From the NCBI GenBank assembly GCA_049319825.1, contig JBMORT010000009.1:67349-131348 (forward strand): a stretch of DNA of 64,000 nt, given 5' to 3'. The notes under the pieces were generated by a model, which searched no databases, was not told the origin of the DNA, and worked only from the letters and a program-made list of their open reading frames with translations. The position numbers and the translations under genes were made by a program. The stretch comes from Patescibacteria group bacterium (GTDB taxonomy: Bacteria > Patescibacteriota > Patescibacteriia > UBA11705 > DATKZF01). Shown here in pieces: positions 3,626 through 56,985 of this stretch (position 1 is its first letter; the number at the start of each line of letters is the position of its first letter).

Positions 3626-4050
3626 TCAAATTAATAATCTGGGATTTGATCGGGGTGGTTTATCAAAATGCTCACATCGATGAAAAAGCCAAGATCATAA
3701 CCAACGATGTTTCCAAAATGGGCATAAAAAATTGTACGATCAGCAACACCATTCCCGATTTGATAAAGGAAGTGTCAAAAGTGTTGGGCATGAATCCGGC
3801 GATATCCACCGTCGAAACGGGATTGAGCAAGCGTGACCGGGAAACTTATGAATATTTGCTCAAAGAAGCCGGAGTTTTAGCATCGGAAACATTAATGATT
3901 GATGATCATAAAAAAAATTTGCACGCGGCAAAAGAACTTGGAATTATCACGGTGTTTTTCGGCGAAGGCTGGCCACGGGAATTGGGAGTGGATTACGCGA
4001 TAAAAAAATTGGATGATTTGATCGATATTTTAAATAAATTAAATACATAA
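3622..4050 (+). CDS. HAD-superfamily hydrolase
   Basis: N-terminal IIWDLIGVV (DxD-like motif I) and C-terminal LMIDDHKKN (motif IV); overlaps the upstream stop (ATGA). Confidence 0.5.
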   Translation: MIKLIIWDLIGVVYQNAHIDEKAKIITNDVSKMGIKNCTISNTIPDLIKEVSKVLGMNPAISTVETGLSKRDRETYEYLLKEAGVLASETLMIDDHKKNLHAAKELGIITVFFGEGWPRELGVDYAIKKLDDLIDILNKLNT

Positions 4051-4072
4051 GAAAAATGAAAAAGTGCCATAA

Positions 4073-5374: not shown

Positions 5375-5495
5375 TGAGGACACGGATTACCACGAAGCGG
5401 TCACTTGATGCCCAGATCATCGTACAAGATGTGCAATGTAATTTTTGAGGAAGTAATTTATGCACGCGGTATCATGTAATCTGCTAACATAAAAT

Positions 5496-39810: not shown

Positions 39811-39889
39811 TATTTGCCGGTCGCGGATAAATCAAGCGCGCAGCGCAATTGTTGTTTGCCCTTGCCAGTAATGATATACTTAAATCGAT

Positions 39890-40765
39890 ATGAAACATCG
39901 ACTTTTCATCATGCCGTTTGATCATCGGACGTCTCTGGTTCGGGATATAATCGGCCATGATAAAATAAATTCCAGGCAGCGTCGGCAAATAGAGAAATTG
40001 AAATTTTTAATTTACCAAGCTTTCTTAAAAGTTTATAATGCTTATTCCAATAAAAGCGAGCTGTCGGTTTTGGTTGACGAACAATTCGGCGCGCGCATCC
40101 TGCGAGACGCGAAAAAAAGAGGCATACAAATCTGTGTGCCCGTGGAAGCCAGCGGTGAAAAAGAATTAAAATTCGAATACGGCAATGCATTTGGTCGGCA
40201 CATAAATAAATTTGCGCCGGATTACGTCAAGGTGCTGGTAAATTACAATCCGTTAAATAGAAAAATAAATCAGCGCCAGAGAAATAAGCTTAACAGGCTA
40301 TCGGATTTTTGTCGAAAAAATAATTATCACCTGCTATTGGAATTGTTGGTGCCGCCGACGGCGAAAGATCTTGAAATTTCCGGAACATTGGCCGGTTATG
40401 AGTCCAAATTAAAGATCAAGAGAACCGTTGACGCGATAAATGAAATTAAAAAAGCGGCCAAACCGGCTATATGGAAAATGGAAGGATTTTCCCGCGCCGG
40501 CTGGCAGAAAGTATTGAAAGCGTTACCGAAAAATCAGGCGGTAATTGTTCTGGGACGCGGAGAAGATGAGCCCAAAGTAAAAAAATGGTTGATTGCCGCC
40601 AGCGGGTTTGCGCGGATCATCGGATTCGCCGTCGGCCGAACAATATTTTTAAAATCACTAAAAAAATATTATTCGGGCAAAATGACAGAAGAGAGCTTCA
40701 TCAATAGGTTGAGCTTAAAATTCGGATCTTTCATAAGATTATGGAAGAAAAATGATAATAATTAA
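39890..40765 (+). CDS. hypothetical protein (possible aldolase-like/DUF2090-like fold)
   Basis: ORF only; assignment weak. Confidence 0.45.
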   Translation: MKHRLFIMPFDHRTSLVRDIIGHDKINSRQRRQIEKLKFLIYQAFLKVYNAYSNKSELSVLVDEQFGARILRDAKKRGIQICVPVEASGEKELKFEYGNAFGRHINKFAPDYVKVLVNYNPLNRKINQRQRNKLNRLSDFCRKNNYHLLLELLVPPTAKDLEISGTLAGYESKLKIKRTVDAINEIKKAAKPAIWKMEGFSRAGWQKVLKALPKNQAVIVLGRGEDEPKVKKWLIAASGFARIIGFAVGRTIFLKSLKKYYSGKMTEESFINRLSLKFGSFIRLWKKNDNN

Positions 40766-40777
40766 CTTACATAAATT

Positions 40778-41188
40778 ATGACAAAAAAAATTGTATCGCT
40801 GGCGATTGCCGTATCATGCGTCTTTCTTCTGGCCGCGTCATGTGAAGTGAGCACGGCCAATCTCTCCGACATCAAAATGTGCGACAACGCTCAGAGTTTG
40901 CAATGCGCGCAAGATGTAACCGAATTTACCACCACCACGCCGGTCATCTATTGCACCGCTGTCTTAAACAACGCGCCGGCAGGCACCACGGTTACCGCCA
41001 GTTGGTATTATTTGGACGAAGAGCTGGGTGGATTCATTGATTCAACGACGGTTGAATCGGAGGAAATGACTTCTGATTTACAGTTTTCTTTAACCAAACC
41101 GACCAATGATTGGCCAACCGGTCCGTATAAAGTCGAATTGCAAATCAACGGGCAGGGATTGGATATTAAAGAATTTTCCGTGAAATAA
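40778..41188 (+). CDS. small secreted protein/lipoprotein
   Basis: signal peptide with LLAASC lipobox-like end. Confidence 0.5.
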   Translation: MTKKIVSLAIAVSCVFLLAASCEVSTANLSDIKMCDNAQSLQCAQDVTEFTTTTPVIYCTAVLNNAPAGTTVTASWYYLDEELGGFIDSTTVESEEMTSDLQFSLTKPTNDWPTGPYKVELQINGQGLDIKEFSVK

Positions 41189-41404
41189 AGACTGATTGCG
41201 ATAGCCGCCATTTAAAGATTTTCGTCATTTGGACGAAAATCTTTTTATCAAGCGAACAGCGAGCGCCGACAGCAATGTTATTTGGGTAATCAACCATTAT
41301 GACTGTCGCGCTGCATTTTTATTCCAGATGATGCAAAGCTAGGTTAAAAAATTGCATAATGTTTACTTTTTCGCTAAATTCGACTAATATTATTATGTCA
41401 TGCA

Positions 41405-42991
41405 TTGTCATCAAATATGAAAAAAATCCTATTTATATTAATAATCGTCGCGGTTTTAATACTCGGCGGGTTCAGCCTGTTGACCGCCTTCGCCCAACCG
41501 ATCGAGCTGGAAAATCCCGTGGTTTTATTGACCGCGCCCTTGGGCGAGGTTTTTTATAGGATATCCGGTTTGTCGTATATTCCGGTCAGCGGTGAAATGA
41601 GGCTGGAAGCCGGGGATTGGGTTAAAACCAACCGCAATTCGAACGTTAAGATTGTTTTTTTCGACAGTCAGGAATTGGAGCTGGATCAAAACACCGAAAT
41701 TCAGATAACCGAAGCGCTGATCGATCAGCACTCGCCGTTTCTCACCAAAGTAAAAGTCAAGCTGACCGAGGGCCAAGTTTGGTCAAGAGTGCTTGAGCTG
41801 CTTCATCCGGACAGTTCATATCAAGTGGAAGCGGAAAACGTGGTGGCCACGGTGCGCGGCACATCGTTTAATATGAAAAACAGCGGCGGCGCGGTTAATG
41901 TTGATGTCTTTGAGAATGCCGTTTATCTTGGGGACGGTGAGCAACAGGTTACAGTGAATGAAAATCAAACAGCGTCGTATGATGATGTCAAAATTAGCGA
42001 TGAGCCAGCGGCGAAAGCAGCGCGCCGGCAACGCCAGCTTATCATTAAGCAAATCGATCCGAATCAAAGAGAAAATTATTGGGTAAAAAATAATTTAGAG
42101 AAAAATGCGTTGTTTAGGCAAAATTTAATTGATAAAAGAAAGAAAATACTCAGTCAAGTCCGACTGCCCGGTGATAAATTTTATAACATTAAACTGCTGG
42201 GCGAAAAACTTTCTTTGTTAACCGCCATGAATCCGGCCAAAAGGCAGGATATTAAGAATCGCATCTCGCTCGAGCGAATGCTGGAGGCGGAAAAGCTGCT
42301 TGATCAAAATAAAAAAACGGAAGCGCTTCGAATTTTAGATAATCTGGGCCCGGCTGCCGCGGCTTATCAAATTCAGCGTCTGCGCGCCATTGATCCCGAT
42401 TTTTTGACTAAATTTTCATCGGACGCGGAACTGCAGGATATTTATCGCGCCCACGTTTTTGGCGAGGGCGCGGTGCAATCATTGCTCGATCGCTGGCAAA
42501 GCATCAATCAGCGCTTATTGACCGCCGTTAGCTCCCAGCCGCTGTCCGACGAGGCGTCGGCATTGATAAACAAGGAATCGAATCAGCTCAAACAAGAGAT
42601 AAACGGCTTAACTCAGCGAGCCAAGGACGCGCTGATAGATTTGAATAGTTTTGATATCGGCGCCACCTTTCCCAGCCAGGATCAAACCGATAAATTTTTG
42701 GCTGATAATCAGCAAAGCAGAAAGCGAATTTTTAAAATTTTGGAAGATCTTGATGCGTTGGAGATTGAAAGAGAATACATTCAGCGACAAGCACTGGCAA
42801 TGGTCGGCTCGCCATCGGAGTCGTTCGCGAAAGAATTATTGGAACGCTGGGCATTGCTGCAGGCCGGTTTTTCAGCGGTACAAAAAGAATTATCTGCGGT
42901 TGAGGCCAAAATTTCCGATATTTCGGTGAATTTGATTGTTCCGGCCACGCCCGATAGCGAAATCAATTTATTAAACATAACTCCGGATTAA
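41405..42991 (+). CDS. membrane-anchored FecR-like domain protein with long coiled-coil region
   Basis: N-terminal TM; VATVRGTSFNM FecR-like strand; helical C-terminus. Confidence 0.5.
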   Translation: MSSNMKKILFILIIVAVLILGGFSLLTAFAQPIELENPVVLLTAPLGEVFYRISGLSYIPVSGEMRLEAGDWVKTNRNSNVKIVFFDSQELELDQNTEIQITEALIDQHSPFLTKVKVKLTEGQVWSRVLELLHPDSSYQVEAENVVATVRGTSFNMKNSGGAVNVDVFENAVYLGDGEQQVTVNENQTASYDDVKISDEPAAKAARRQRQLIIKQIDPNQRENYWVKNNLEKNALFRQNLIDKRKKILSQVRLPGDKFYNIKLLGEKLSLLTAMNPAKRQDIKNRISLERMLEAEKLLDQNKKTEALRILDNLGPAAAAYQIQRLRAIDPDFLTKFSSDAELQDIYRAHVFGEGAVQSLLDRWQSINQRLLTAVSSQPLSDEASALINKESNQLKQEINGLTQRAKDALIDLNSFDIGATFPSQDQTDKFLADNQQSRKRIFKILEDLDALEIEREYIQRQALAMVGSPSESFAKELLERWALLQAGFSAVQKELSAVEAKISDISVNLIVPATPDSEINLLNITPD

Positions 42992-44976
42992 TGGGTAAAA
43001 ACATGGCAAAAATTTCGGCGATATTTTTGGCAATACTGGGAGGTATTGCTTTTGTTTATTTTTTATTTCATTTTCGGTTTTTCTGGCTCTTTGACCGCCA
43101 GCTGACGGATAAGCTGTTTATTTCGGAAAAAATTTCCAATCAAGTGGTGATTATCGGCATTGATGATCACAGCATCGAGGAATTAGGCCAATGGCCTTTC
43201 AGCCGGCGGCAGCACGCTCGGCTAATTGAAAAATTGGAGCGCGGCGGCGCCCTGGCCATTGGCTATGATGTCACGTTCAGCGAACGCAGCGCCGATGATC
43301 AGCTTTTGTTTTCGACAATTTTTAATTATGATAATTTGGTGTTTCCGATGGAAGGAACAATCAGAGTCCGCGAGGGTGATGTCCCGGTGTTTAAGAAAAC
43401 GCTATGGCCGATCGCGGAAATTAAAGATAAATTCAGGATCGGCCATACGGTGCTGGTGCCGGATTTGGATGGCATTGTGCGCCAAGCGCCTTTTTATATT
43501 GCCGAAAACGGCAGCAAAGTCCCGCCGTTTTTTATTCAGGTAATCAAGCAGGCCGGACAATGGTCGGGGATCGAAGGCGTTAATCCTTATCAATATCAAT
43601 ACAGCGATTTGGGGTTGTTCCGAATATTTTTTTTCGGACCCAAACAAACTTTCCGCACGTACTCGTTTGCTAGCGTGCTTGAAAATGATTTTAATCTTGA
43701 TCTGGTTAAGGACAAAATTGTGCTGGTCGGCGCGACCGCCAAAAATCTTCATGACGAGTATTTTGTCCCGCCGTCAAACGGCACGGCCATGCCGGGCGTG
43801 GAAATTCAGGCGAATTTGATCGAGGGATATCGTCAAAATCGATTTTTAAAAAATATTGGAAATGAAGCCGATTATTTTTTGCATCTGCTGATGCTCGGTT
43901 TGATTTTCGGCATCCTGCTGAATTTATCGCGGCCGCGCTATATCGCTTTGTGGCTGTCCGGCGCAATGCTTGTCTATTTGCTGATGGTGGCCTGGCTGTT
44001 TTCCATCGGCTATATCGTGCCGGTTTTTTATCCGCTGCTATTAATGATAATAATAGCGGTTTTTAATCTGATTGTTCGTTATTTTTTTGAGATCCGCGAA
44101 AAGAATAAAATTCGGCAGGGATTTTCGCAATACGTGGCCAAAGAGGTGGTCGATCAGCTGATTAAAAATCCGGAAAAGCTAAACCTTGGCGGTGAACGAA
44201 AAAAGCTGACTGTTTTATTTTCTGACATCAGATCATTTACCTCACTTGCCGAATCGATGCCGCCGGAAAGGTTGGTGGACTTGCTAAATGACTATTTGTC
44301 GGCGATGGGCGAAGCGGTGATTGAAAATAACGGAGTTATTGACAAATTCATTGGAGACGCTATCATGGCTTTCTGGGGAGCGCCGCTTGATAATCCTCGG
44401 CAAGAAACAGACGCGCTCAGAACAGCCCTTTACATGGCCGAGCGGCTGAAGGTTTTTAACGAAAAAAACGCCGGTCTTGGCCGGCCGGAATTAAAGATCG
44501 GTATTGGCATAAACACCGGCGATGTGATTGTCGGCAATATCGGCTCTAAAAAAAGATTTGATTACACGGCTATCGGCGATGAAGTGAATTTGGCGTCGCG
44601 GCTGGAAAGCCTGACTAAATTTTACGGTGTTCAAATTATTGCCTCGGCCAAGACCAAACAGATGGTTGACGCCGAATTTCTATGGCGATATTTGGATACG
44701 GTGGCGGTGGCCGGGAAAAGTGAAGGCGTAAAAATTTATCAATTAATGGGGGTTAATAGGCAGAATGATCGGCGCGTCCAATTTATTAGAACTTTTGAAC
44801 GGGCGGCCAATATTTATCTGGGAGGCCGATTTTTAGAGGCCAGCTATGTTTTTGAAGGAATAATTAAAGAGTATCCCGATGATCAGCCGACCGCAATTTA
44901 TCTGGAGCGCATCGACCAATATTTAAAAAATCCGCCTAATGATTTTGACGGCGTATTCAGGGCAGGATTTAAATAA
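42991..44976 (+). CDS. adenylate/guanylate cyclase with CHASE2 sensor domain
   Basis: N-terminal TM plus periplasmic CHASE2-like region plus TM cluster; class III cyclase core (KLTVLFSDIRSFTSLAE, KFIGDAIMAFWGAP, GINTGDVIVGNIGS). Confidence 0.85.
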   Translation: MGKNMAKISAIFLAILGGIAFVYFLFHFRFFWLFDRQLTDKLFISEKISNQVVIIGIDDHSIEELGQWPFSRRQHARLIEKLERGGALAIGYDVTFSERSADDQLLFSTIFNYDNLVFPMEGTIRVREGDVPVFKKTLWPIAEIKDKFRIGHTVLVPDLDGIVRQAPFYIAENGSKVPPFFIQVIKQAGQWSGIEGVNPYQYQYSDLGLFRIFFFGPKQTFRTYSFASVLENDFNLDLVKDKIVLVGATAKNLHDEYFVPPSNGTAMPGVEIQANLIEGYRQNRFLKNIGNEADYFLHLLMLGLIFGILLNLSRPRYIALWLSGAMLVYLLMVAWLFSIGYIVPVFYPLLLMIIIAVFNLIVRYFFEIREKNKIRQGFSQYVAKEVVDQLIKNPEKLNLGGERKKLTVLFSDIRSFTSLAESMPPERLVDLLNDYLSAMGEAVIENNGVIDKFIGDAIMAFWGAPLDNPRQETDALRTALYMAERLKVFNEKNAGLGRPELKIGIGINTGDVIVGNIGSKKRFDYTAIGDEVNLASRLESLTKFYGVQIIASAKTKQMVDAEFLWRYLDTVAVAGKSEGVKIYQLMGVNRQNDRRVQFIRTFERAANIYLGGRFLEASYVFEGIIKEYPDDQPTAIYLERIDQYLKNPPNDFDGVFRAGFK

Positions 44977-45054
44977 CACAGGCTAGACATGGTGTTTAAA
45001 TCGAGTGTATAATTATTTTTATATAGGCGACCGTTGACAAAAGGAGGCTGCCCA

Positions 45055-45798
45055 ATGGGGGATCGCGGATCAAATGGCGTTTTTCCCAGTGAAAAATGGA
45101 GAATCGTGCGGGATATTTGGACCAGCGCGCAGGTGAAGCTGCCCAAGGTGATGCGCTGGAAGAAATATTTTGACCATTTCGGCGATATTCGACGGCAGGA
45201 TTGCCTTCAGCATTCCTATGCCATCGGTTTTATCGCCGACGCGGCTATTTTAATGCTGGCGCCGTTCATCAGGCTTGATTCGCATTTGCTTTTGACCGCG
45301 TTTCAGGTGCATGACATCGGCGAAGGAGAGCTGGGTCGAGACGTGGTGCTGAGCCTTAAAAACAAATATGCCGACGATGATTTGAACGAATACTTGGCTT
45401 TCATCGAACGCTATCGATCGTTACCGACAGCTGTTTTTGATCATTATAATCGGGCTTTTTTGCTGCAGTATTGTTTAGAGCTGGATAAGCATCAAGGTTT
45501 CCCCATCGAGGCGCAGTGCGTGATGGCGGAATTGGCGGAAACGAAAAGATACGAAGCCTTGGCCTTTCACGCCATTGAAATTTGGGATTATTTGCTTTAC
45601 GCGTTGGAGCAATATCAAACAGTGGAAAATGGGTACATTTTGCATATCGTTATTTCCGGCCATTTCGATCAATACGAAAAGTTGTGTTTGGAATTGCCCG
45701 GGTTCGAACATGTTTTTTGGACCGCGGATGTCAGGGCTTGGTGCCTGCGTTTTCTGCGCGAACACCCCCCGTGTCCTTGCGGCGGTTATCTGAGCTGA
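45055..45798 (+). CDS. HD-domain hydrolase (YfbR-like)
   Basis: ATG after AAGGAGG; LQHSYAIGF and FQVHDIGEGELGRD metal-binding motifs. Confidence 0.55.
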   Translation: MGDRGSNGVFPSEKWRIVRDIWTSAQVKLPKVMRWKKYFDHFGDIRRQDCLQHSYAIGFIADAAILMLAPFIRLDSHLLLTAFQVHDIGEGELGRDVVLSLKNKYADDDLNEYLAFIERYRSLPTAVFDHYNRAFLLQYCLELDKHQGFPIEAQCVMAELAETKRYEALAFHAIEIWDYLLYALEQYQTVENGYILHIVISGHFDQYEKLCLELPGFEHVFWTADVRAWCLRFLREHPPCPCGGYLS

Positions 45799-45819
45799 AT
45801 TCATAGATTCAGCTTTTTT
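45794..45819 (+). terminator. rho-independent terminator
   Basis: gctgaa-tcatagat-ttcagc plus T6 overlapping the stop. Confidence 0.5.
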
Positions 45820-45902
45820 ATTAAAAAAAATATCGAGAGACTCTGGGTAATTTCCGGCGTGGCCGCAGTAAAAGAAAACCGGTAGCGTGCGCCGGTTTAT
45901 GT

Positions 45903-46154
45903 TTAAATGATTGTCTGCCCCAAGTACCATTGAATTTTTTGGCTGAATTTCATTCGAAAATCTGTGTATAAAAGATTCATCTCTGAAAAATTTTCGCAGA
46001 TGAAAAGTGTTTCCCCAAGGCCGAAATCCACGCCGCAAACCACGCTGTCGCCATTGGAAAGATGTGGAAAATAAAGCGGTTTGTTTTCCGGAAATGTCAG
46101 CGGTGTTAATGTCAGCACGGCAATTAAATCTTTTTTCAGCCCAGCCTTTTTCAT
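45903..46154 (-). CDS. hypothetical small protein
   Basis: GGAGGTG immediately upstream of the ATG; 83 aa. Confidence 0.3.
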   Translation of the reverse strand: MKKAGLKKDLIAVLTLTPLTFPENKPLYFPHLSNGDSVVCGVDFGLGETLFICENFSEMNLLYTDFRMKFSQKIQWYLGQTII

Positions 46155-46292
46155 GCCACCTCCAGCAGAATCACATTATCAATTTTACAAAAAATATTTG
46201 CGTTTGTCGACGGAAATATTAATTGTTTAGTGATAATTCGCTTTTTAAGGCTAAATTATGTTATGATGAAATAAGTTGATTAATTCTATCAT

Positions 46293-47069
46293 ATGCAAAA
46301 AATTCACATTTCCGGTTCGGAAAATGACCGGATAAAACAATTAAAAAAATTAAATCAAAAAAAATTTCGTCAGAAATCCGGGATGTTTTTTATAGAAAAT
46401 TTAAAAACAGCGCATGACGCGGCCAAATCCGGCATTTTACCGATCCAAATTTTTGTGACCGAGGAATTTGAAGAAAGAAATAAAAAAGAAGTTGATTTTA
46501 TTTTAAAAAAATCTGGGGTCAAAGAAATATACGCGATGTCCCCAAAGGTGAACCGTAAATTTTCCAATTTGGACACGCCGGCCGGATTCGCGGCCGTTTA
46601 TAAAAATTTGAATGCGGTTATCAATTTATCAAAACCGGTAATTTATCTGAACGCCATCAGTGATCCGGGCAATTTGGGCACAATGCTGCGGTCGGCTTTG
46701 GCGTTCGGCATCGACAACGTGGTTTTGGATGAAGAATGCGCTGATTTGTATAATTTTAAGACATTGAGCGCGGCCAAAGACTCTTTTTTCAAATTGCGAA
46801 TTGAATATGATCATGGCGCCAAATTGCTGAAAGTCATCAAAAAGCAAATGCCTGTTTACGCCACAAAAAAATCAGGCGGCCAAAGCCCGGATTTCCTTCG
46901 AAAGCAAAAAAAAATCGCGATTATTTTAGGAAATGAATCGCTCGGAGTCGATAAAAATTTATTGAAAATGGCCGATGGCTTCATTACCATAAAAACCAGC
47001 GGACGAGTGGAGTCGCTTAACGTCGCCGCGGCGGCAGCCATTATTTTTTATGAGATTTTCCAATCATAG
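46293..47069 (+). CDS. TrmH/SpoU-family RNA 2'-O-methyltransferase
   Basis: GNLGTMLRSALAFG, ILGNESLGV, ESLNVAAAAAI motifs. Confidence 0.85.
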   Translation: MQKIHISGSENDRIKQLKKLNQKKFRQKSGMFFIENLKTAHDAAKSGILPIQIFVTEEFEERNKKEVDFILKKSGVKEIYAMSPKVNRKFSNLDTPAGFAAVYKNLNAVINLSKPVIYLNAISDPGNLGTMLRSALAFGIDNVVLDEECADLYNFKTLSAAKDSFFKLRIEYDHGAKLLKVIKKQMPVYATKKSGGQSPDFLRKQKKIAIILGNESLGVDKNLLKMADGFITIKTSGRVESLNVAAAAAIIFYEIFQS

Positions 47070-48012
47070 CGTGTTAATCGATTTTTGGCGTTACATTAAA
47101 AAACCGGCATATCAGTGTCGGCCAGTCGCCAAAGGCGCCAGGCGCGCGATTTGGGATGTTTTACGGTTATGGTCTTTATTGTTAGTGATATCCATGCTGG
47201 TTGGGGCGATTGTCACTGTTTTATTAATGGCGGCCGGATATAGTGAAGAAAATCACGCGGTAGTGGATTTAATGATCAATCAGCCGATTTATGTTTTAGT
47301 GCTATTGGCGATAATCTGGGCGCCACTGGCCGAGGAATTGACTTTTCGACTGCCGCTGAAATATTCGCCGTTTCGATTCGGTTTTGGGCTGGCATTTATT
47401 GTCGTACTGGTTATCAATCTACTGGCGATAATTTGGCCGCCGGTTACGGATTTGATCCCTTGGCTTTATCCCGATTCAAGAATAGTCGATTTGCTGATCG
47501 GCGTTGGCATAATCGCCGTGATCGGCTGCACCGTCGGCTGGATACTCAAGAAAAAAACGTCAATGAACGCCTTTAACGACTTCTATTCGAACAAATTCAT
47601 TTGGTTGTTTTATGGCAGCGCCTTGATATTTGGCGTGCTGCATCTGGCTAACTACGCCCGACTGGACCAAATCTGGTATCTGACGCCGCTGCTGATATTT
47701 CCGCAAGTGATGCTGGGATTGGTGCTGGGATACGTGCGCATGAGATATGGCTTGGGGTGGGCAATGCTGAATCATCTCATCCATAATGCTTTATTGGTCA
47801 TTCCGGCTGTTTTGTTCAGCATGTTATCGGCGGATTTGGTTAAAAGCCTTGAATACGGTGAGACCGTTGATTTGGGAAATATCGCGGGCCATGATCTGGC
47901 GATATTATCGCTGATTGGCTGGGGGGCGATGGTTTCTGGAATTATCGTATTGATTCTATTGATAAATTTGATTTGGGAGGCAAGCAGGGAAGCCAGGAAA
48001 ATTAAAAGTTAA
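47050..48012 (+). CDS. CPBP-family (CAAX) intramembrane metalloprotease
   Basis: EELTFR motif (LAEELTFRLP), FGVLH, HxxxN-like (HLIHN) motifs; multiple TM helices. Confidence 0.75.
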   Translation: MRFSNHSVLIDFWRYIKKPAYQCRPVAKGARRAIWDVLRLWSLLLVISMLVGAIVTVLLMAAGYSEENHAVVDLMINQPIYVLVLLAIIWAPLAEELTFRLPLKYSPFRFGFGLAFIVVLVINLLAIIWPPVTDLIPWLYPDSRIVDLLIGVGIIAVIGCTVGWILKKKTSMNAFNDFYSNKFIWLFYGSALIFGVLHLANYARLDQIWYLTPLLIFPQVMLGLVLGYVRMRYGLGWAMLNHLIHNALLVIPAVLFSMLSADLVKSLEYGETVDLGNIAGHDLAILSLIGWGAMVSGIIVLILLINLIWEASREARKIKS

Positions 48013-48037
48013 TCAAGTTTTTATTTAATGGTGTATT

Positions 48038-48063
48038 AAAAAATCCCCATTAGGGGATTTTTT
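48038..48063. terminator. bidirectional rho-independent terminator
   Basis: aaatcccc-atta-ggggattt with flanking A/T runs. Confidence 0.6.
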
Positions 48064-48068
48064 ATATC

Positions 48069-48230
48069 TTAGAATCTTTTCGGTTTGCTTTTTTTGTAGC
48101 ACTCTTTGCAAAAAAGCGGACGAGTGCCATCTGGCTGAAACGGAAGCTCGGTAATTTTTGCTCCGCATTCCGAGCACTCCCAGTCTCCCTGGTACATTTG
48201 ACGTGAACCAAAATCATTTTGGTCTGCCAT
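48069..48230 (-). CDS. 53-aa zinc-ribbon miniprotein (MADQNDFGSRQMYQGDWECSECGAKITELPFQPDGTRPLFCKECYKKSKPKRF)
   Basis: CxxC...17 aa...CxxC pair; terminator directly downstream; not in ORF track (<60 aa). Confidence 0.45.
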   Translation of the reverse strand: MADQNDFGSRQMYQGDWECSECGAKITELPFQPDGTRPLFCKECYKKSKPKRF

Positions 48231-48419
48231 GTGGTTGTTGTTTTGATAAACTTAGCGATAAATACGACTTAATGAAAGTTAATTTGATTGTAAGTTCTAC
48301 AAAACTTTTAATTGTTATGAATTCATTTTAGCGCATTAAAGCGATTTTGTCAATATGTTGACTATTTTTAGCATCTTTGATATGATTTGTTAAGTCTAAT
48401 GGCGAAAAATGGAGGAAGC

Positions 48420-48740
48420 ATGAACTTTAGCGCGGAAGAGACCGGGTTTATAAGAGCCAGCGGATTGGCGTGCGATGGCACGGCACAGTCACTTATTGCC
48501 AATTATGGCAGAACAATAGTGTTTGTCGCTCGACCCGGTGATGCGTTTATTATCATTGGCATAATCACCGGAGTGGAAGTTCGCATTGGACACGGTTTGC
48601 CGAAAATTCGTCTGGAGATCAGCAATAAAGAGCTTGCGGGAAATCAGATCAAATGTCTGGAGTATCAAAGCGGCCCAAATTGGCTGCTGGTCGGTGAATA
48701 CACGTATTACATCCCCGGAATGCTATCGATATCTTTTTAA
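48420..48740 (+). CDS. hypothetical protein
   Basis: ATG directly after GGAGGA. Confidence 0.45.
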   Translation: MNFSAEETGFIRASGLACDGTAQSLIANYGRTIVFVARPGDAFIIIGIITGVEVRIGHGLPKIRLEISNKELAGNQIKCLEYQSGPNWLLVGEYTYYIPGMLSISF

Positions 48741-48865
48741 ACCAAAGCAATGCTTTGGTTTTTTGTCGGCAGATTGTTGATGATAATTTTATATAAATTT
48801 TATATATTTTTTATAAAATATGTTATAATATAAATCATATAAATATCGTTACAAAGGAGGGTGTA

Positions 48866-49675
48866 ATGACTGGGGCCAGGAAAGTGCCGTTTGCGCACCA
48901 AGACACCCAGCCTCCGGAAGAAATTTCAGCAGCGGCAGTGGAGGCTGGTGTGCGACACCGATCATCGAGACTTCTTGTTTTGGGACAAATCGCCTTTGAA
49001 GTGGCACATCAGCTCAATAATTGTCTCACCGGAATTTGTGGCGGCTTATATTGTTTGGAATCGGAAGCGGCAGATCCGCTTCTCAGGCAAGAATTGCGAT
49101 TTCTCAAGGAATCGGCTGAGAGAGCAATCAATTTGACTCAGGGAATCAATGAATTTGGACGGAAAAAAACGCAAACGTCAAAGCTGATTGACGTAAATGC
49201 GGTGATTTCCGATGTGATCAGATTTTTCCGGCAAATTTTCGCTGAATCAATAATGCTGAGCTATACGGTTGATGGCCAATTCACCATTTGGGCTGATCAA
49301 TGCCAGATCTTTGAAATGATGCTGAATATTTTGATCAACGCCTATGACGCTGTCCGGAATAATCAGGAAAAAAACAGGCAAATTTCGATTCATGTCAGCG
49401 CTTTGAGGCTGGAAAGAGGTTTGATTAATTCTCCCCGCAGTCGCGAAGGCAATTTTGTGAAAATTGCCATCTCGGATAATGGTTGCGGAATTTCAAAGGA
49501 AGATTTGCCTAAAATATTCGACGCATATTTTACCACCAAGGGAGATTTTGGTAGCGGGCTTGGCCTCAAAATCGTCAAAGAAATTATCGAGACTCATCAT
49601 GGCTGGATTGATGCGGAGAGCGATCCTGATGAGGGAACCACTTTTTCCGTGTTTTTCCCTGCGGAAATTCGATGA
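48866..49675 (+). CDS. cytoplasmic sensor histidine kinase (HisKA + HATPase_c, no sensor domain)
   Basis: H-box EVAHQLNNCLTGI; N, G1, G2 boxes (DNGCGI, GSGLGL); AAGGAGGG RBS. Confidence 0.85.
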   Translation: MTGARKVPFAHQDTQPPEEISAAAVEAGVRHRSSRLLVLGQIAFEVAHQLNNCLTGICGGLYCLESEAADPLLRQELRFLKESAERAINLTQGINEFGRKKTQTSKLIDVNAVISDVIRFFRQIFAESIMLSYTVDGQFTIWADQCQIFEMMLNILINAYDAVRNNQEKNRQISIHVSALRLERGLINSPRSREGNFVKIAISDNGCGISKEDLPKIFDAYFTTKGDFGSGLGLKIVKEIIETHHGWIDAESDPDEGTTFSVFFPAEIR

Positions 49676-49677
49676 AA

Positions 49678-49704
49678 GGTGTTTATTCAATAAACACCTT
49701 TTAT
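49678..49704 (+). terminator. hairpin/terminator between histidine kinase and HypF-like gene
   Basis: ggtgtttat-tca-ataaacacc 9-bp stem plus TTTTAT. Confidence 0.45.
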
Positions 49705-49716
49705 ATTTGGGTCAAT

Positions 49717-50886
49717 ATGCTAATATTTAAAGATATGAGGGAATATTCGCTAAATTTACCTCGGCAGTCGCGAGTTTTATGTTTGGGAGCGGAATCTGCC
49801 GGAAATTTTACCGTATATGAGAATGGTCAAGCTTATTTTTTTTCTGATTTTGGTGATTTGCTCGATGATAAAAATTTCAATGCATATCAAGAGGCATTGT
49901 TTGGATTTTTTGGAAAAAGAAATTTTGTGCCAGATGTTATTACTGTAGATTTGCACCCTGATTTTAAAACGTCAAAATTAGGCATGGAATTGGCTCAAAA
50001 ATTTGGTTGCAGACTTGAAAAAGTGCAGCACCATGCGGCGCATATCTATTCGGTGTTGTTTGACCATATTCGGGCTTCTCAAACTCAAACTCTGCCTCGA
50101 AATTTTGTTGGAATTGCAGGCGATGGTACAGGGTATGGTCTTGATGGGAAAATCTGGGGTGGAGAAGTGTTTTTATATAGGCAGGAGGCAATAGGTCAGC
50201 CTTCGCCTCATGGGCTTCGGCTGACAGGCAGTAGGCCAGAGGTGCGGATAGGACATTTGGAGAATCAATTGCTTTGTGGGGGAGATTTGGCCATTAAAGA
50301 ACCGGCCCGAATGCTTCTTTCCATACTTTTAGGTATAAAAAAGCCGGCAGAGCTCTGGCCCTTTTTTAGCGCATTTTATGCTGAACAACAGTTTAATGTT
50401 CTTGCAAAAATGCGTGAACAAAAATTTAATTCAGTCGAAACTTCGAGCACAGGCAGGGTACTTGATGCGGCTTCACTGCTGCTCGGATTTTGCGGCAATA
50501 AAAGAGCGTATAAACATGAGCCCATTGATTTATTGGAGAAAAATTCGACAGAACCATTCATTTTGAAACCTCAAATAGAAAAGCAAGATGAATACGTATT
50601 GAACACAACATGGCTGTTTCAATGGATGTTGGATAACTTGGATAAAGATAAGGGCAGATTGGCTGCTACAGTTCAGAAATATATTATTGAGGGTTTAATT
50701 GAAATTGCCGGAAAAGTGAATCCTGATTTGCCGATTTATTTTGGCGGCGGAATGGCTAATAATAAAATAATGAGCCAAATTGCCGAAGAAAATGGGGTAA
50801 TTATGGCTAAAAATATTGAAAGAGGGGATAATTCATTGAGTTTGGGGCAATTGATGTATTGCTTATGGTGTGACAAGCTTTCTTAG
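49717..50886 (+). CDS. stand-alone HypF C-terminal (Kae1/TsaD-like carbamoyltransferase) domain protein
   Basis: VLCLGAESAGNF (start of HypF Kae1-like domain), VQHHAAHI, GIAGDGTGYGLDGKIWGGEVF; lacks acylphosphatase, Zn-finger and YrdC domains. Confidence 0.65.
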   Translation: MLIFKDMREYSLNLPRQSRVLCLGAESAGNFTVYENGQAYFFSDFGDLLDDKNFNAYQEALFGFFGKRNFVPDVITVDLHPDFKTSKLGMELAQKFGCRLEKVQHHAAHIYSVLFDHIRASQTQTLPRNFVGIAGDGTGYGLDGKIWGGEVFLYRQEAIGQPSPHGLRLTGSRPEVRIGHLENQLLCGGDLAIKEPARMLLSILLGIKKPAELWPFFSAFYAEQQFNVLAKMREQKFNSVETSSTGRVLDAASLLLGFCGNKRAYKHEPIDLLEKNSTEPFILKPQIEKQDEYVLNTTWLFQWMLDNLDKDKGRLAATVQKYIIEGLIEIAGKVNPDLPIYFGGGMANNKIMSQIAEENGVIMAKNIERGDNSLSLGQLMYCLWCDKLS

Positions 50887-50999
50887 CACCGCGTCGAGCG
50901 CTACTCCGGTTTGTGGAGATAGTTACCAAAACCTCGGTAAAATCGCGCTATATGCGATTTTTTTATTATAAAAGCCGAAGAGCGATCTTCGGCTATGGA

Positions 51000-51480
51000 A
51001 GTGAGAGACACGCGGGTCCGCGTTTCAAACATCCCGATCTTCGTCTCCCAAACTTGATTCAAAGGATGCGGCGGACAACGACCGGATCATTAAAGACAGC
51101 ATTTTCATCGTCCGCCGCCAGGGGTGAGGGAAAACACGCTGGCAATCGTTTGCGACACCTCGTACTTCGTTTCCCCTCTTCACGGTTTACGATCGCGGAT
51201 CGTGTAGGAACACAAAATTTTGTGTTCCTACATGCCCGGCAAAGCCGGGCCAAACCGTGAAGAGGGGCCGAAGCGAGGTGCGCTTCGGCCGGAGGCAGAC
51301 AAAGGGTCGTACGTTAAATACAACTCCCCGTCCGTCTGCCTAAAGGAATTGGGAGACACATGAACACGCGTCGTCAAACAACCCACCCCTCGTCTCCCAA
51401 ACTTCATTCAAAGGATGCGGCGGACATCTACATCTTCGTGTTGAAACAGATCAAGATTCGTCCGCCGCCTCATTTTTATA
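51000..51480. repeat. GC-rich palindrome-dense element with two direct motif-plus-hairpin copies (possible IS200/IS605-derived non-autonomous element or structured ncRNA)
   Basis: tcgtctcccaaactt[g/c]attcaaaggatgcggcggaca at about 51040 and 51396, each followed by a GCGGCGGAC...GTCCGCCGC hairpin; central 15-bp stem (cccctcttcacggttt/aaaccgtgaagagggg) encloses three perfect hairpins. Confidence 0.4.
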
Positions 51481-51547
51481 TCATAAAATAAAAAACATGT
51501 CAAGGCGGCATGCTCTTTGTATATTTAATTTTAGCGAAAATTTCGAT

Positions 51548-52273
51548 TTATTTATGCTTTTTTCCTAAAAATTTCTTTATTAAGCCATCAATACACTCAT
51601 TTTTTTTCCATTCTTTAGCCATGGCTTGATATAATTTCTCACAGCCCGCGTACGGCTTGATATTATTTTTGGCTTTAAAAATCGCTTTATACGGCTGCCA
51701 GTTTTCGATTACTGTATTAAAAGTCTCAGCCACTTGCCATAAATATTTTGGACTTTTGCCTTTGAATTTATCGCGCTCTTTAATGCCGTAATTTTTTTCA
51801 ATAAAATCGTAGAAAATAAAATGCAGCATTTCATGGCCCACTGTTGACAGCGGATCAAATTTTTTTCGCGAATAGGGGAAATAAAATATTTTGTCCTTAA
51901 TATCTCGCGGGAACATATTGAAAATCGAGGCATAGCCTATATATTTGCCTTTGGGCCAAGGGTGATTTCCAAATATTTTATTCACCAAATTAAAAAATTT
52001 ATTTTCTATTTTTCCCCAGCGCTGCTTGGTCTGCTCGACTCCACGCGCAATGGCTTGCGCATTTGCCTGATAAAAATTTTTGGCGTATTTTGAAATTATA
52101 AGATGTTTTTCTTTTAATGAAAATTTCTTGTCATTTATAAATAAAATTTCCTTGGGCAAAAACAAATCAACAAATTCACCGTTTTTAATGAACCATTTGG
52201 CGTTTTCAATGTCAGACCGAGCGCTTATTTGAAATTTTATTTTGGGTTTGGCTGATTTTTTCATATTAAACAA
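51548..52273 (-). CDS. hypothetical protein with HExxH motif (putative zincin-like)
   Basis: STVGHEMLHFIF; no other family signal. Confidence 0.5.
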   Translation of the reverse strand: MFNMKKSAKPKIKFQISARSDIENAKWFIKNGEFVDLFLPKEILFINDKKFSLKEKHLIISKYAKNFYQANAQAIARGVEQTKQRWGKIENKFFNLVNKIFGNHPWPKGKYIGYASIFNMFPRDIKDKIFYFPYSRKKFDPLSTVGHEMLHFIFYDFIEKNYGIKERDKFKGKSPKYLWQVAETFNTVIENWQPYKAIFKAKNNIKPYAGCEKLYQAMAKEWKKNECIDGLIKKFLGKKHK

Positions 52274-52363
52274 AGTTCTATACTACGGATTGCTCCAAAT
52301 ACTACGACATGCTGAATATAAATTTGTTTTCGTAGTATTCGTAGATTTTTTGTAGATTCGTAG

Positions 52364-52579
52364 TTAACAAATCCTCGGAATCAATTTGCCTTTCGGCTCC
52401 TCAATCCTTCTTTCCGAACCAAGCATTGTCTTCAAAAAGACACCTTCGCCTTCAACGCATTTTCCAATAACTTTGGCTTCAGGATTAAATTCTTGAAGTT
52501 TTTTTAACGCTTCATCAGTGTTTTCCGGACTGACCGCGGCGATAATGATTGCTAAAATGACGATGATTGGGATTAACAA
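52364..52579 (-). pseudogene. duplicated 3' fragment of hypE
   Basis: encodes ...AVSPENTDEALKKLQEFNPEAKVIGKC..GEGVFLKTMLGSERRIEEPKGKLIPRIC, near-identical to the C-terminus of hypE at 54219-55187. Confidence 0.6.
52371..52545. repeat. ~175-bp direct repeat, copy 1 (hypE 3' end)
   Basis: near-identical to 54226-54400 apart from a 9-nt divergent patch. Confidence 0.8.
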
Positions 52580-53303: not shown

Positions 53304-53347
53304 AAAATTTCTAGCAAATACTAGGAATCAATTTTCCCTTCGGCTCT

Positions 53348-54218: not shown

Positions 54219-55187
54219 TCAACATATCCTCGGAATCAATTTGCCTTTCGGCTCCTCAATCCTTCTTTCCGAACCAAGCATTGTCTTCAAAAAGACACCT
54301 TCGCCCGGAGTGCATTTTCCAATAACTTTGGCTTCAGGATTAAATTCTTGAAGTTTTTTTAACGCTTCATCAGTGTTTTCCGGACTGACCGCGGCGATAA
54401 ATCGGCCTTCGGACGGTAGGGTAAATAAATCAATTCCCAAAAGCTCGGTTAAGGCGACGACTTCTTTTTTATAAGGCAACGTTTCTTCATCCAAAATAAT
54501 TTTCACTTTTGATTTGTCGGCGATTTCATTCATGTTCGCGGCCACGCCTCCGCGCGTGGGATCCTTGGCCGCGTTCAGCAGGTGCCCGACTGCCTGGAAT
54601 TCTGCCAGAAGCGGCTGGCAGTCGCTTTTTAAATCAGTTTGATAATCAAAGCGATAGGCGAGAAGCGTTAAACCATGTTCGCCCAAATCTCCTGATGTAA
54701 TGATATTATCGCCGACTTTGGCGCCGCCATTGTCTATAACTTTTTCAACCAATCCGATGCCGGCCGTGGTTATTTCTATTTTATCAAGTTTGCCTTTTTC
54801 CGTCACTTTGGTGTCGCCGGTAACGATAGGAATATTGGTGTGTTTTGAAACTTTATCAATTGATTCTGCGATTTTGAAAAGGTCTTTTTTGGCAAAGCCT
54901 TCTTCAATGACAATGCTTAAAGACAGGCCAAGCGGCTTGGCGCCCATGACGACTAAATCATTGATCGTGCCGCAAGTGGCGATTTTCCCAATATCGCCGC
55001 CCGGAAAAAATATCGGATCAACTATAAAAGCATCAGTGGTGAAAACGAGCTTTTGATTTCCCAGATCATAAATCGCGCCATCATCTTCTGTGTTGGTCCA
55101 ATTTGATTTGAGATTAATTATTTGGCGAAGCTGGCGGATAAGTTCGTTATTTTTGAATCCGCCGCCGCCGTGGTCGAGTTCGATCAT
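54219..55187 (-). CDS. hypE: hydrogenase maturation protein HypE (carbamoyl dehydratase)
   Basis: AIR-synthase-like fold; N-terminal MIELDHGGGG; C-terminal ...KGKLIPRIC with the terminal Cys. Confidence 0.9.
   Translation of the reverse strand: MIELDHGGGGFKNNELIRQLRQIINLKSNWTNTEDDGAIYDLGNQKLVFTTDAFIVDPIFFPGGDIGKIATCGTINDLVVMGAKPLGLSLSIVIEEGFAKKDLFKIAESIDKVSKHTNIPIVTGDTKVTEKGKLDKIEITTAGIGLVEKVIDNGGAKVGDNIITSGDLGEHGLTLLAYRFDYQTDLKSDCQPLLAEFQAVGHLLNAAKDPTRGGVAANMNEIADKSKVKIILDEETLPYKKEVVALTELLGIDLFTLPSEGRFIAAVSPENTDEALKKLQEFNPEAKVIGKCTPGEGVFLKTMLGSERRIEEPKGKLIPRIC
54226..54400. repeat. ~175-bp direct repeat, copy 2 (authentic hypE 3' end)
   Basis: see copy 1. Confidence 0.8.
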
Positions 55188-55198
55188 ATGAATGATTT

Positions 55199-56275
55199 CT
55201 ACCCCACTTCAGTGGGCATTTTTTTGAAGCCGACTGGAAGTCGGGCAGAATTGCGATATTTATATTCTATTTGGCAATTCCCCTCGACCGACACCATACA
55301 CGCGCCTTGAGGATTTTCCGGCGAGCAGGCCTGGGCAAAAAGGGGACAATCCTGCGGTTTTTTTAGACCTTGTAGAATTTGGCCGCAGATGCAGCCGCTT
55401 GGTTTTAACTTGATTTCTTGTTTGATTTTAGCAATTAAATCGGAATAAGTAAACTCCGCATCCTGATTTTGGAATTCAGCCTTTATTTTTAGACCGGAAG
55501 ACGGGATCAATCCCAAACCACGCCATTTGGCATCCGCGGATTCAAACACTTCATTGATAATTTTTTTCGCTTCGATATTACCTTCGGGTTTAACGACTCT
55601 TGTATATTGATTTTTAACTTGATTTTCATGGTTTAAAATCATTTCGAGCAGCCACTCGATTGAAATCAAAACATCTTCCGGCTCGAATCCGGAAATAACT
55701 TGCGGAATCTCGAACTGCTCATAAGGTTTTGATCCAATTATGGCTGATACATGGCCGGGATTGATAAAGCCATCGATTTGAATATCAGGATTTGATAGCA
55801 AAGCAGCCATGGCCGGAGGAAATAATTTATGAGCTGAATAAACCCTTAAACCCTGCTTGGCTGCCCACGCGGTCATCGGCGTAGTGGTTTCAAAACCGAT
55901 GCCAAAAAAGACTAAATCATTTATTTGTTCAGCCAATTTTAGTGCGTCCAGTGTTGAGTAGACAATCTCAATTTTCTTGCCTTGCTGCTTTAATTTTTCC
56001 AAGCTCGAATTGGTCCCCGGCAAGGATAAAGCATCGCCGTAAGCCGCGATCGGAACATCATTTTCCGCCAGACCGATTACAATGTCAATGTCAGCTTGAT
56101 CAGTGACGCAGATCGGACAGCCCGGCCCGGAAATCAGCTCGATGTTTGAGGGAAGCAAGCTTTTCAAATTATATTTCGCCACAGTCTGCGAATGCGTGCC
56201 GCAGAGTTCCATGAGTTTGACGGAGCGCGAGATTTGATTTGCCAGGGCTTTGATTGTTGTTAATATTTTTTTCAT
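55199..56275 (-). CDS. hypD: hydrogenase maturation protein HypD
   Basis: CGTH, GPGCPICV and C-terminal cysteine motifs. Confidence 0.9.
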   Translation of the reverse strand: MKKILTTIKALANQISRSVKLMELCGTHSQTVAKYNLKSLLPSNIELISGPGCPICVTDQADIDIVIGLAENDVPIAAYGDALSLPGTNSSLEKLKQQGKKIEIVYSTLDALKLAEQINDLVFFGIGFETTTPMTAWAAKQGLRVYSAHKLFPPAMAALLSNPDIQIDGFINPGHVSAIIGSKPYEQFEIPQVISGFEPEDVLISIEWLLEMILNHENQVKNQYTRVVKPEGNIEAKKIINEVFESADAKWRGLGLIPSSGLKIKAEFQNQDAEFTYSDLIAKIKQEIKLKPSGCICGQILQGLKKPQDCPLFAQACSPENPQGACMVSVEGNCQIEYKYRNSARLPVGFKKMPTEVG

Positions 56276-56775
56276 GCGTTAATTTGCGTTATACGAGTGT
56301 TATATGGCGTTATAAAGCGTTGATTTGTATTATTTGGTGGCATTTTTAAGTCTGTTTAATACAACGTTTATTAATCCATTTAAAATTGACTGGACCTTAT
56401 TTGCTTGAAACATGTAATCATCAAATGTATCTTTGTCAATATAACTGACTCTGTAACCAATATGCAGGTCATTTATAACTTCATTCAAACAACCTTTGGC
56501 GATTCCATAAAATCTTAAATTTTCTTTATAGAAATACCTGCCGAATCCTTCCGCAATGTTCGCGCCAACTCCACGCGCGCTTTCGCGCAGATGCTTTACC
56601 AAATTGTATTTTTCCGATTCGGGAAGGGTATTTGTCAATTTGTAAATCATTTCGCAAAAAACCATTGATTCTCTCCACGCATCCAGATCTTCTATATTTT
56701 GTATTTTCATAAAATTAATAACTCGTTCCAACGCAATATAACATTTAAATAACGCCAAATAACGTCAAATAACGC
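56276..56775. mobile_element. 4HB-gene cassette flanked by inverted arrays of GCGTTAT/ATAACGC heptamers, inserted between hypD and hypC
   Basis: left flank gcgttaatttGCGTTATacgagtGTTATatgGCGTTATaaaGCGTTgattt; right flank aATAACAtttaaATAACGCcaaATAACGtcaaATAACGC (reverse-complement orientation). Confidence 0.35.
56330..56710 (-). CDS. four-helix-bundle protein
   Basis: MKIQNIEDLDAWRES...LRESARGVGANIAEGFGR signature; the ORF-track N-terminal extension reads through the flank repeat. Confidence 0.7.
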   Translation of the reverse strand: MKIQNIEDLDAWRESMVFCEMIYKLTNTLPESEKYNLVKHLRESARGVGANIAEGFGRYFYKENLRFYGIAKGCLNEVINDLHIGYRVSYIDKDTFDDYMFQANKVQSILNGLINVVLNRLKNATK

Positions 56776-56985
56776 TTACATAGCATTCAACGCTTTTGTT
56801 ATTTCTTCAGCCTCATTTTTATCAATAATCTCAATCGCAAACCCCGCATGGACAATCACAAAATCACCGTTTTTTGGTTTTACTAGGCTGATATTCACCT
56901 TTTTTTTCAGGCCGTTAAAATCAACCAGCGCGGTTTGGCTGTTTTCTTCGATTGATTGGATTTTTCCGGGAATGGCTAAGCACAT
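56776..56985 (-). CDS. hypC: hydrogenase maturation chaperone HypC
   Basis: starts MCLAIPGKI (the MCLAIP HypC signature); 69 aa. Confidence 0.85.
   Translation of the reverse strand: MCLAIPGKIQSIEENSQTALVDFNGLKKKVNISLVKPKNGDFVIVHAGFAIEIIDKNEAEEITKALNAM

Follow-up and report, generated by a model that had tools for sequence, protein, structure and literature searches.

Genes at the locus

The 64-kb stretch of DNA analysed here (the window) comes from a metagenome-assembled genome (MAG) of the Patescibacteria, or candidate phyla radiation (CPR), and carries on its forward strand a gene for a HypF protein made up of the Kae1-like half alone (HypF_C). This gene lies directly downstream of a small histidine kinase gene and 3.3 kb from hypE, hypD and hypC, an intact trio on the opposite strand. 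The proximity of the trio had been noted in the original prediction, made from the sequence alone, and is confirmed by TIGRFAM and Pfam matches and by the hypC open reading frame (ORF). In all, ~74 kb of sequence was inspected, comprising the window and 10 kb upstream of it. The principal genes are:

48866–49675, forward strand: soluble, sensor-less histidine kinase, 269 amino acids (aa); NCBI MFZ5365507.1, annotated 'NtrB'
49735–50886, forward strand: stand-alone Kae1-like HypF (HypF_C), 383 aa, with Pfam HypF_C and HypF_C_2 matches only
54219–55187, reverse strand: hypE, 322 aa, presumably the substrate protein; TIGR02124 score 340 bits (cutoff 252)
55199–56275, reverse strand: hypD, 358 aa; TIGR00075 score 422 bits (cutoff 193), and Pfam HypD, E 2e-127
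56776–56985, reverse strand: hypC, 69 aa, N-terminal MCLAIPG, sharing 62% identity with HypC from the hydrogenase cluster at the CPR locus L005

Both ORFs named in the original prediction are present, as are the motifs VLCLGAESAGNF, VQHHAAHI and GDGTGYGLDGKIWGGE that it assigned to HypF, all three in the longest (404-aa) ORF of the second gene. Within this ORF, HypF_C (PF17788) matches residues 32–131 (E 4.5e-19) and HypF_C_2 (PF22521) residues 147–393 (E 9e-38); the protein gives no Pfam match to the acylphosphatase (PF00708), zf-HYPF twin zinc finger (PF07503) or YrdC-like (PF01300) domains. The HypF model TIGR00143 (741 positions) is matched from position 387 to 738, with a score of 209.2 bits that lies below the equivalog cutoff of 466.1, and tblastn searches using the N-terminal halves of 11 full-length HypFs as queries found no HypF N-terminal segment in the whole 64-kb window. 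The claim that the three N-terminal domains are lacking is therefore upheld. An independent Logan assembly reproduces window positions 39672–52400 at 100% identity, and the HypF_C locus is thus not an assembly artefact.

Among PDB sequences, phmmer returned HypF only (Thermococcus kodakarensis 4g9i, Caldanaerobacter 3vth/3vti and Escherichia coli 3tsp/3tsq), aligned over the Kae1-like domain with VQHHxAH, DGxGYGxDGxxWGGE, SSxGRxxDA, GGxxxN and GDxxxSLGQ in register. The motifs of the metal and nucleotide sites all line up with those of 4g9i, 3vth and 3tsp. Motifs invariant across the family are HHxxH (99–103), DGTG (130–133), WGGE (141–144), SSTGR (237–241), GGG..N (337–343) and GD..S.GQ (364–372), and 40 residues are conserved in the CPR clade and in full-length HypFs alike. 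An AlphaFold2 model built from a 17-sequence alignment has a mean pLDDT (predicted local distance difference test) of 90.8, its sole disordered part being a lineage-specific insert at residues 152–164, and the top Foldseek matches of this model are the HypF structures 3vti, 3vth, 3tsq and 4g9i (template modelling score, TM, 0.78–0.84), of which 3vti is a HypE–HypF complex. The protein is thus the stand-alone Kae1-like half of HypF with all of its catalytic motifs intact; it is labelled 'hypothetical protein'.

Two other identities were considered and rejected. The O-carbamoyltransferases NodU, CmcH and TobZ, named in the original prediction as the grouping that would overturn its assignment, also perform carbamoyl-adenylate chemistry on a Kae1-like domain (PMC6022934, PMC9633730). 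In these enzymes, however, a Kae1-like domain is joined to a YrdC-like one in reverse order, whereas the window protein is Kae1-like only; it has no Carbam_trans Pfam match at E < 0.01, HypF structures match it best, and no TobZ-type structure occurs among its top 50 folds. Identity with TsaD is likewise dismissed, as there is no PF00814 match and the structural similarity is distant.

Short HypF proteins in Patescibacteria

Proteins of this short form are widespread. The best 120 of 938 homologues are 357–466 aa long and contain just PF17788 and PF22521, one of them with an extra, weak Carbam_trans match. In an exhaustive search among 1.84 billion sequences representing 50%-identity clusters, the best 24 matches are 281–504 aa long, and a protein of full-length size (728 aa) first appears at rank 25. 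In GTDB species genomes we found 45 Patescibacteria loci, 37–48% identical to the window protein, and the form is short in 45/45, with ORFs of 364–472 aa when counted from the first possible start and an upstream stop codon closing each. From locus L053 of this ranking onwards the GTDB matches are full-length (~690–830 aa), their sources being one Altiarchaeales genome, one MAG each of 'Saccharibacteria' and Woesearchaeota, and members of many further phyla. Among the genomes sampled, Patescibacteria usually have the one-domain HypF; literature searches on the CPR form gave nothing specific. The DPANN MAG PCVE01 (L056, L061), of the Woesearchaeota, has a full-length HypF of 831 aa; one of its contigs also ends within a short HypF gene of the CPR type, whose beginning is preserved and whose product shares 50% identity with the window protein. 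Either the two forms genuinely coexist there or a CPR contig was binned wrongly.

We surveyed with tblastn the 10 kb around 49 stand-alone HypF_C loci (48 and the window). Homologues of hypE were found near 41 of them, hypD near 35, hypC near 33 and hypA near 21, together with the small (26) and large (24) subunits of hydrogenase and diaphorase genes of NuoE/F/G-like or HoxEFU-like type (14–15). Clustering of 822 neighbouring ORFs recovered the same partners, plus the glycolysis genes GAPDH, aldolase and triose-phosphate isomerase. The order at L005 is typical: hypA is followed by the genes for the large subunit and the small subunit and by HypF_C, after which come hypE/D/C and the diaphorase genes. 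From this survey we conclude that CPR hydrogenase clusters have the short protein as their resident HypF. The suggestion that it might act on a different acyl-AMP substrate fares poorly for the family as a whole, embedded as it is in hypCDE/[NiFe]-hydrogenase clusters.

The hydrogenase large subunits of these clusters carry the nickel-site motifs RxCGxC and DPCxxCxxH and are labelled sulfhydrogenase-like in the source databases. Those of L005, L009, L013 and others, ~409–419 aa long, end exactly at the His of DPCxSCxVH; as they have no C-terminal extension, no cleavage by a maturation endopeptidase would be needed. No HypB homologue was found in the 49 neighbourhoods in a search made only with C. 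necator HypB (E < 1e-5). Directly downstream of HypF_C at L005 (11117–12536) lies the core of a diversity-generating retroelement, a reverse transcriptase (RVT_1) gene and a bAvd-like gene, the former overlapping the 3' end of HypF_C on the opposite strand.

The original prediction offered two explanations for the short gene, a split HypF or one that had lost its N-terminal half. If HypF were split, a gene elsewhere would encode the N-terminal half and the two halves would assemble non-covalently, rebuilding the channel between the active sites. Databases do contain N-half-only gene products, and at two loci (L091, L092) an N-half gene immediately precedes a C-half gene. However, most of the N-half-only matches, obtained with the N-terminal half of the closest full-length relative as query, are contig-end fragments labelled 'partial'; the L092 assembly has many split neighbouring genes, and the L091 ORFs overlap by 35 nucleotides (nt) in the manner of a frameshift. 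The N-terminal half is found within 10 kb of 0/49 stand-alone loci, nor does it occur in the window, and no conserved unknown, YrdC-like or carbamate-kinase-like partner replaces it among the 822 clustered neighbour ORFs. We therefore regard a split HypF as very unlikely, and loss of the N-terminal half as the explanation that fits.

Loss could also mean decay, in which case HypF_C would be a pseudogene, a hypF truncated at its 5' end, within a hyp cluster on its way out. The N-terminal 380 residues of canonical HypF are indeed gone, and there have been repeated insertions between HypF_C and hypE. Yet hundreds of lineages retain an unbroken ORF whose boundaries are conserved; its invariant motifs and confidently modelled fold point the same way, and it is intact in 6/6 genomes of the window's own subclade (the window, L001, L003, L088, L089 and L090), where the other proteins are 61–69% identical to that of the window and keep all catalytic residues. 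Family-wide conservation effectively refutes this explanation, which we consider hardly credible.

Relationship to one-domain and full-length HypF

A one-domain HypF has already been described in Cupriavidus necator, where HypF1 was inferred to need pre-made carbamoyl-adenylate (PMC9100943). The HypF1 sequence used here is that of C. necator (Ralstonia eutropha) H16, megaplasmid pHG1 (WP_011153939.1, 394 aa). Like the window protein it consists of HypF_C and HypF_C_2 only and has the same catalytic motifs, and it is encoded in a hyp operon beside hypC/D/E, just as the window gene lies near hyp genes; the two proteins are 30% identical over 239 residues. In a neighbour-joining tree of 130 Kae1-like domains (60 bootstraps), however, HypF1 groups with its own full-length paralogue, HypF2, in 60/60 replicates and far from the CPR proteins. 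The one-domain architecture is therefore convergent.

The best tree unites the short proteins of CPR in a single clade whose sister is a full-length pair, L054/P0150 (732 aa), and the window's own subclade is recovered in 60/60 bootstraps. The CPR clade has fixed residues of its own. Its YKHEP motif contains K260 and H261 where full-length HypFs have Glu-Gly, G23 lies in the first phosphate-binding loop (ESxGNF, compared with ELKNTF), and S271 is fixed too. At all four positions HypF1 has residues of the full-length type.

The coexistence of HypF1 with HypF2 on the same replicon bears on a further explanation, in which the main work falls to a full-length hypF located elsewhere in the genome, the short copy being a paralogue, accessory or partly redundant. 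HypF1 is the only characterised one-domain HypF, some Patescibacteria-labelled MAGs do encode a full-length HypF (L054, P0281, P0327), and the sequence inspected here, in which no full-length hypF occurs, covers ~74 kb of a 259.5-kb contig. On the other side, CPR genomes are small, the copy in the hydrogenase/hyp cluster is the short one in 45/45 sampled Patescibacteria species, and the CPR-specific fixed residues missing from HypF1 suggest long-term function alone. A paralogous role therefore seems unlikely to us.

Comparison with canonical HypF (E. coli 3tsp/3tsq, Caldanaerobacter 3vth/3vti, Thermococcus 4g9i) shows a Kae1-like domain that is homologous throughout and has the same fold, and the same partners, hypC/D/E, with a [NiFe]-hydrogenase in about half of the related loci. 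What distinguishes the window protein is the absence of the acylphosphatase, zinc-finger and YrdC-like domains, and because these N-terminal domains are gone it lacks two of the three active sites together with the internal channel.

Carbamoyl transfer and the source of the donor

In full-length HypF the acylphosphatase site splits carbamoyl phosphate, the YrdC-like domain adenylates and the Kae1-like domain transfers, an internal channel linking the sites; the lability of carbamate and carbamoyl-adenylate is the proposed reason for this channel (PMC6022934). The HypEF complex shows the cysteine of HypE directed towards the nucleotide that the Kae1-like domain binds (PMC4506123). The window HypE retains the canonical C-terminal cysteine (...PRIC). 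Having lost two upstream active sites, the window protein must be supplied with activated carbamoyl donor by another source in the cell, and the original prediction was right to place the supply of the carbamoyl group to HypE in question, the Kae1-like site alone remaining.

We propose that HypF_C is probably a functional stand-alone S-carbamoyltransferase module whose N-terminal domains were lost early in Patescibacteria, which obtains its donor from elsewhere and to which the upstream kinase is a separate neighbour; its catalytic activity and its carbamoyl donor are what we infer rather than observe. An ancestral full-length HypF would have shed the acylphosphatase, zinc-finger and YrdC-like domains early in the history of the phylum, and the remaining Kae1-like domain would carbamoylate HypE's C-terminal cysteine with carbamoyl-adenylate made elsewhere. 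By analogy, the donor may most likely come from a separate YrdC-family enzyme, such as TsaC/Sua5, and less likely from the Kae1-like domain itself with altered activity.

The analogy is with the partnership of TsaD/Kae1/Qri7 and TsaC/Sua5, in which a stand-alone transferase of the Kae1 fold takes a labile acyl-adenylate from a separate YrdC-family enzyme, as we suggest for HypF_C. The handover of a labile adenylate from TsaC to TsaD in the synthesis of N6-threonylcarbamoyladenosine (t6A; PMC7913687) may thus serve as a model for supply in trans. The resemblance to TsaD/Kae1 is limited in other respects: TM is ~0.5 and identity 10–15%, the window protein has no PF00814 match, and the acceptor would be a protein cysteine and not tRNA A37.

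Several points weigh against our proposal. Carbamate and carbamoyl-adenylate are highly labile and are channelled inside full-length HypF (PMC6022934), so that supply in trans is a conjecture. Domain scans of the window ORFs of at least 110 aa found no YrdC/TsaC, carbamate kinase or carbamoyl-phosphate synthase, and none of these recurs among the clustered neighbours of the family. The CPR bacteria that carry such hydrogenases are presumed anaerobes. In E. coli, C. necator HypF1 showed no apparent activity under anaerobic conditions (PMC9100943), and this, set beside the presumed anaerobic life of CPR, sharpens the question of the donor without answering it. Genes for a hydrogenase, HypA or a diaphorase were found neither in the 64-kb window or the 10 kb upstream of it nor within 10 kb of HypF_C in any of the subclade's five other genomes, and a working target enzyme in the window organism is thus an assumption on our part. 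(A profile search with 12 CPR large subunits was saturated at 7,625 matches, the best 120 of which are all typical Moranbacteria/Parcubacteria proteins.) Finally, the single origin of the CPR short clade is recovered in only 26/60 bootstraps, so that one early loss of the N-terminal domains in Patescibacteria appears likely from the sequence comparison without being firmly resolved.

A bolder version of the proposal would make the one-domain protein the sole HypF of Patescibacteria, able to serve cyanide (CN) ligand synthesis without the phosphatase and adenylation sites, with the donor coming from TsaC/Sua5 or from self-activation through K260/H261 and the ESxGNF loop. We regard this as possible but doubtful. 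If true, it would amount to a shortened route to the CN ligands, and the donor question would become tractable by comparative genomics of a tiny gene repertoire.

HypF is regarded as a machine of four domains through which two labile intermediates are channelled. HypF1 showed that one domain can suffice, and the CPR form offers a second and much larger natural experiment in hydrogenase maturation, independent of HypF1, with its own fixed residues and in organisms with few genes among which to search for the missing donor. A one-domain HypF as such was already known; what is new is the existence of independently evolved and very widespread members in CPR. As these short proteins do not reach the TIGR00143 cutoff and often carry the label 'hypothetical protein', the capacity of CPR for hydrogenase maturation may be under-called.

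The histidine kinase and its junction with HypF_C

The gene upstream of HypF_C encodes, as predicted, a histidine kinase with neither a sensor domain nor a transmembrane region, only ~45 residues preceding the DHp domain. HATPase_c is matched with E 2e-23 (83 bits), and the HisKA match of 20.6 bits is under the cutoff of 26.9 although the H-box His is intact; the H-box, N-box and G1/G2 boxes are kept in five orthologues. A cognate response regulator nearby, which the original prediction had raised as a question, did not emerge, as no Response_reg match occurs among the window ORFs of at least 110 aa. The small kinases (window 48866–49000; L003, L088, L089) share an N-terminal T-Q-P-P-E motif before the DHp helix and are otherwise only ~30% identical, and L003 has two tandem copies.

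Across the six subclade genomes synteny runs through a mechanosensitive channel gene, zero to two small kinases, HypF_C, variable small genes, hypE, hypD, hypC and phosphoglycerate mutase. In four of these genomes a kinase gene immediately precedes HypF_C, an arrangement confined to this subclade; the kinase is missing from L001 and L090. In the tblastn survey of 49 stand-alone loci a kinase homologue was found near three. It is probably a neighbour outside the Hyp system.

The start of HypF_C lies further downstream than the longest ORF suggests. Alternative starts are ATG 49672 (longest ORF, 404 aa) and ATG 49717 (NCBI, 389 aa), but 17 homologues start at the position of Met22, that is ATG 49735. 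From this codon the gap to the kinase stop codon is 59 nt, close to the 57–58 nt of three kinase-bearing relatives, and on the strength of the homologue alignments and the conserved junction we take ATG 49735 as the true start (383 aa). The ATGA overlap reported at 49672 is thus present in the sequence but is a product of the longest-ORF call, and translational coupling through it is rejected. The hairpin reported between the genes also exists, although its stem is 15 bp and not 9 and it includes the kinase stop codon. The features of the junction and of the 3' end of HypF_C are:

49672–49704, forward strand: hairpin with a 15-bp stem (arms 49672–49686 and 49690–49704) and a 3-nt loop, followed by a T-rich tail; RNAfold −17 kcal/mol
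49718–49726, forward strand: TGnTAAnAT, an extended −10-like motif 8 nt upstream of ATG 49735
50939–50961, forward strand: terminator-like hairpin and T-run found by consensus scan, 53 nt after the HypF_C stop codon

In L003, L088 and L089 a hairpin with a T-run lies at the same place as in the window, the stems differing in sequence yet remaining complementary. The −10-like motif likewise recurs in the four kinase–HypF_C junctions (TGcTAATAT, TGaTAAGAT, TGaTAATAT and TGaTAAGAT), so that all four have the same layout of stop codon, hairpin with T-run, TGnTAAnAT, 6–9 nt and ATG. In L003 the ATG within the motif meets a stop codon at once, and the motif is therefore non-coding there. Conservation of the layout suggests that the hairpin is a terminator of the kinase gene and TGnTAAnAT a promoter from which a leaderless or short-leader HypF_C mRNA would be transcribed. 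The consensus scan did not flag the junction hairpin as a terminator and found no −35 hexamer for the putative HypF_C promoter. From the conservation of this shared layout we consider the kinase and HypF_C to be separate transcription units.

The subclade nevertheless raises the possibility of a changed function, with hypF_C/E/D/C kept without a hydrogenase and turned to thiocyanate or cyanide chemistry or to another acyl-adenylate, possibly under control of the kinase. In its favour, 6/6 subclade loci lack the hydrogenase, hypA and diaphorase genes that flank hyp in most other CPR, and one or two small kinases stand directly upstream in four of the six genomes. The active-site residues of HypF and HypE's C-terminal cysteine are all unchanged, however, and HypCDEF are not known to have any role beyond [NiFe] cofactor synthesis. 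A hydrogenase could also sit elsewhere on the 260–365 kb contigs of the subclade, and the kinase is set apart by the hairpin and promoter-like motif and missing from L001 and L090. A change of function is in our view decidedly unlikely.

The hyp genes and the interval between them

No two of the six subclade genomes have the same cargo between HypF_C and hypE. In the window the 3' end of hypE (54219–54400, reverse strand) has two remnants downstream on the same strand. The larger (52366–52545; 180 nt, 96.7% identity) is annotated by NCBI as a 71-aa ORF (MFZ5365510.1), and the smaller (53315–53346) is 32 nt long with 84% identity; positions 3635–3674 of L089 belong to the same comparison. Each remnant directly follows one inserted gene, namely a gene for a 276-aa lipoprotein-like product and one for an S-adenosylmethionine (SAM) methyltransferase. 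It looks as if cassettes had inserted serially at the 3' end of hypE and duplicated the target end, although no integrase was seen. A diversity-generating retroelement was rejected as the cause of the duplication, since the differences from hypE are clustered (ACTCCG versus GTTGAA) and not adenine-specific. The Logan contig ends at window position 52400, within the 180-nt hypE repeat.

Immediately downstream of HypF_C is a 661-nt non-coding stretch (50887–51547) with a GC content of 0.49, above that of its surroundings. It contains two 58-nt direct repeats (51025–51082 and 51374–51431), each followed by a GCGGCGGAC/GTCCGCCGC hairpin, and a perfect 16-nt inverted repeat (51173–51188/51252–51267) around a perfect 30-nt palindrome (51203–51232) that recurs in L003 at 6825–6856. 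Rfam gave no credible match for this structured stretch.

Between hypD and hypC lies a gene of family PF05635 ('23S rRNA intervening sequence protein'; 56330–56758, reverse strand), and a second occurs in the window at 29–391 on the forward strand. Members of the family are found at other hyp junctions in L003, L089 and L090, sometimes twice, and they behave like small mobile insertions.

Other genes in the window

A second signalling module lies near the hyp locus at 41405–44976, where a gene for a FecR-domain protein is followed by one for a CHASE2-adenylate/guanylate cyclase with a 1-base overlap at 42991, and the pair is kept in L088 (427–3940). The CPR source of the window fits its gene content, which includes form II/III RuBisCO, ribose-1,5-bisphosphate isomerase and AMP phosphorylase. 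Genes for the isomerase (IF-2B family), a HAD hydrolase, the form II/III-type RuBisCO and an AMP-phosphorylase-like protein are consecutive at 2690–6995 and correspond to the nucleotide-salvage RuBisCO pathway typical of CPR genomes.

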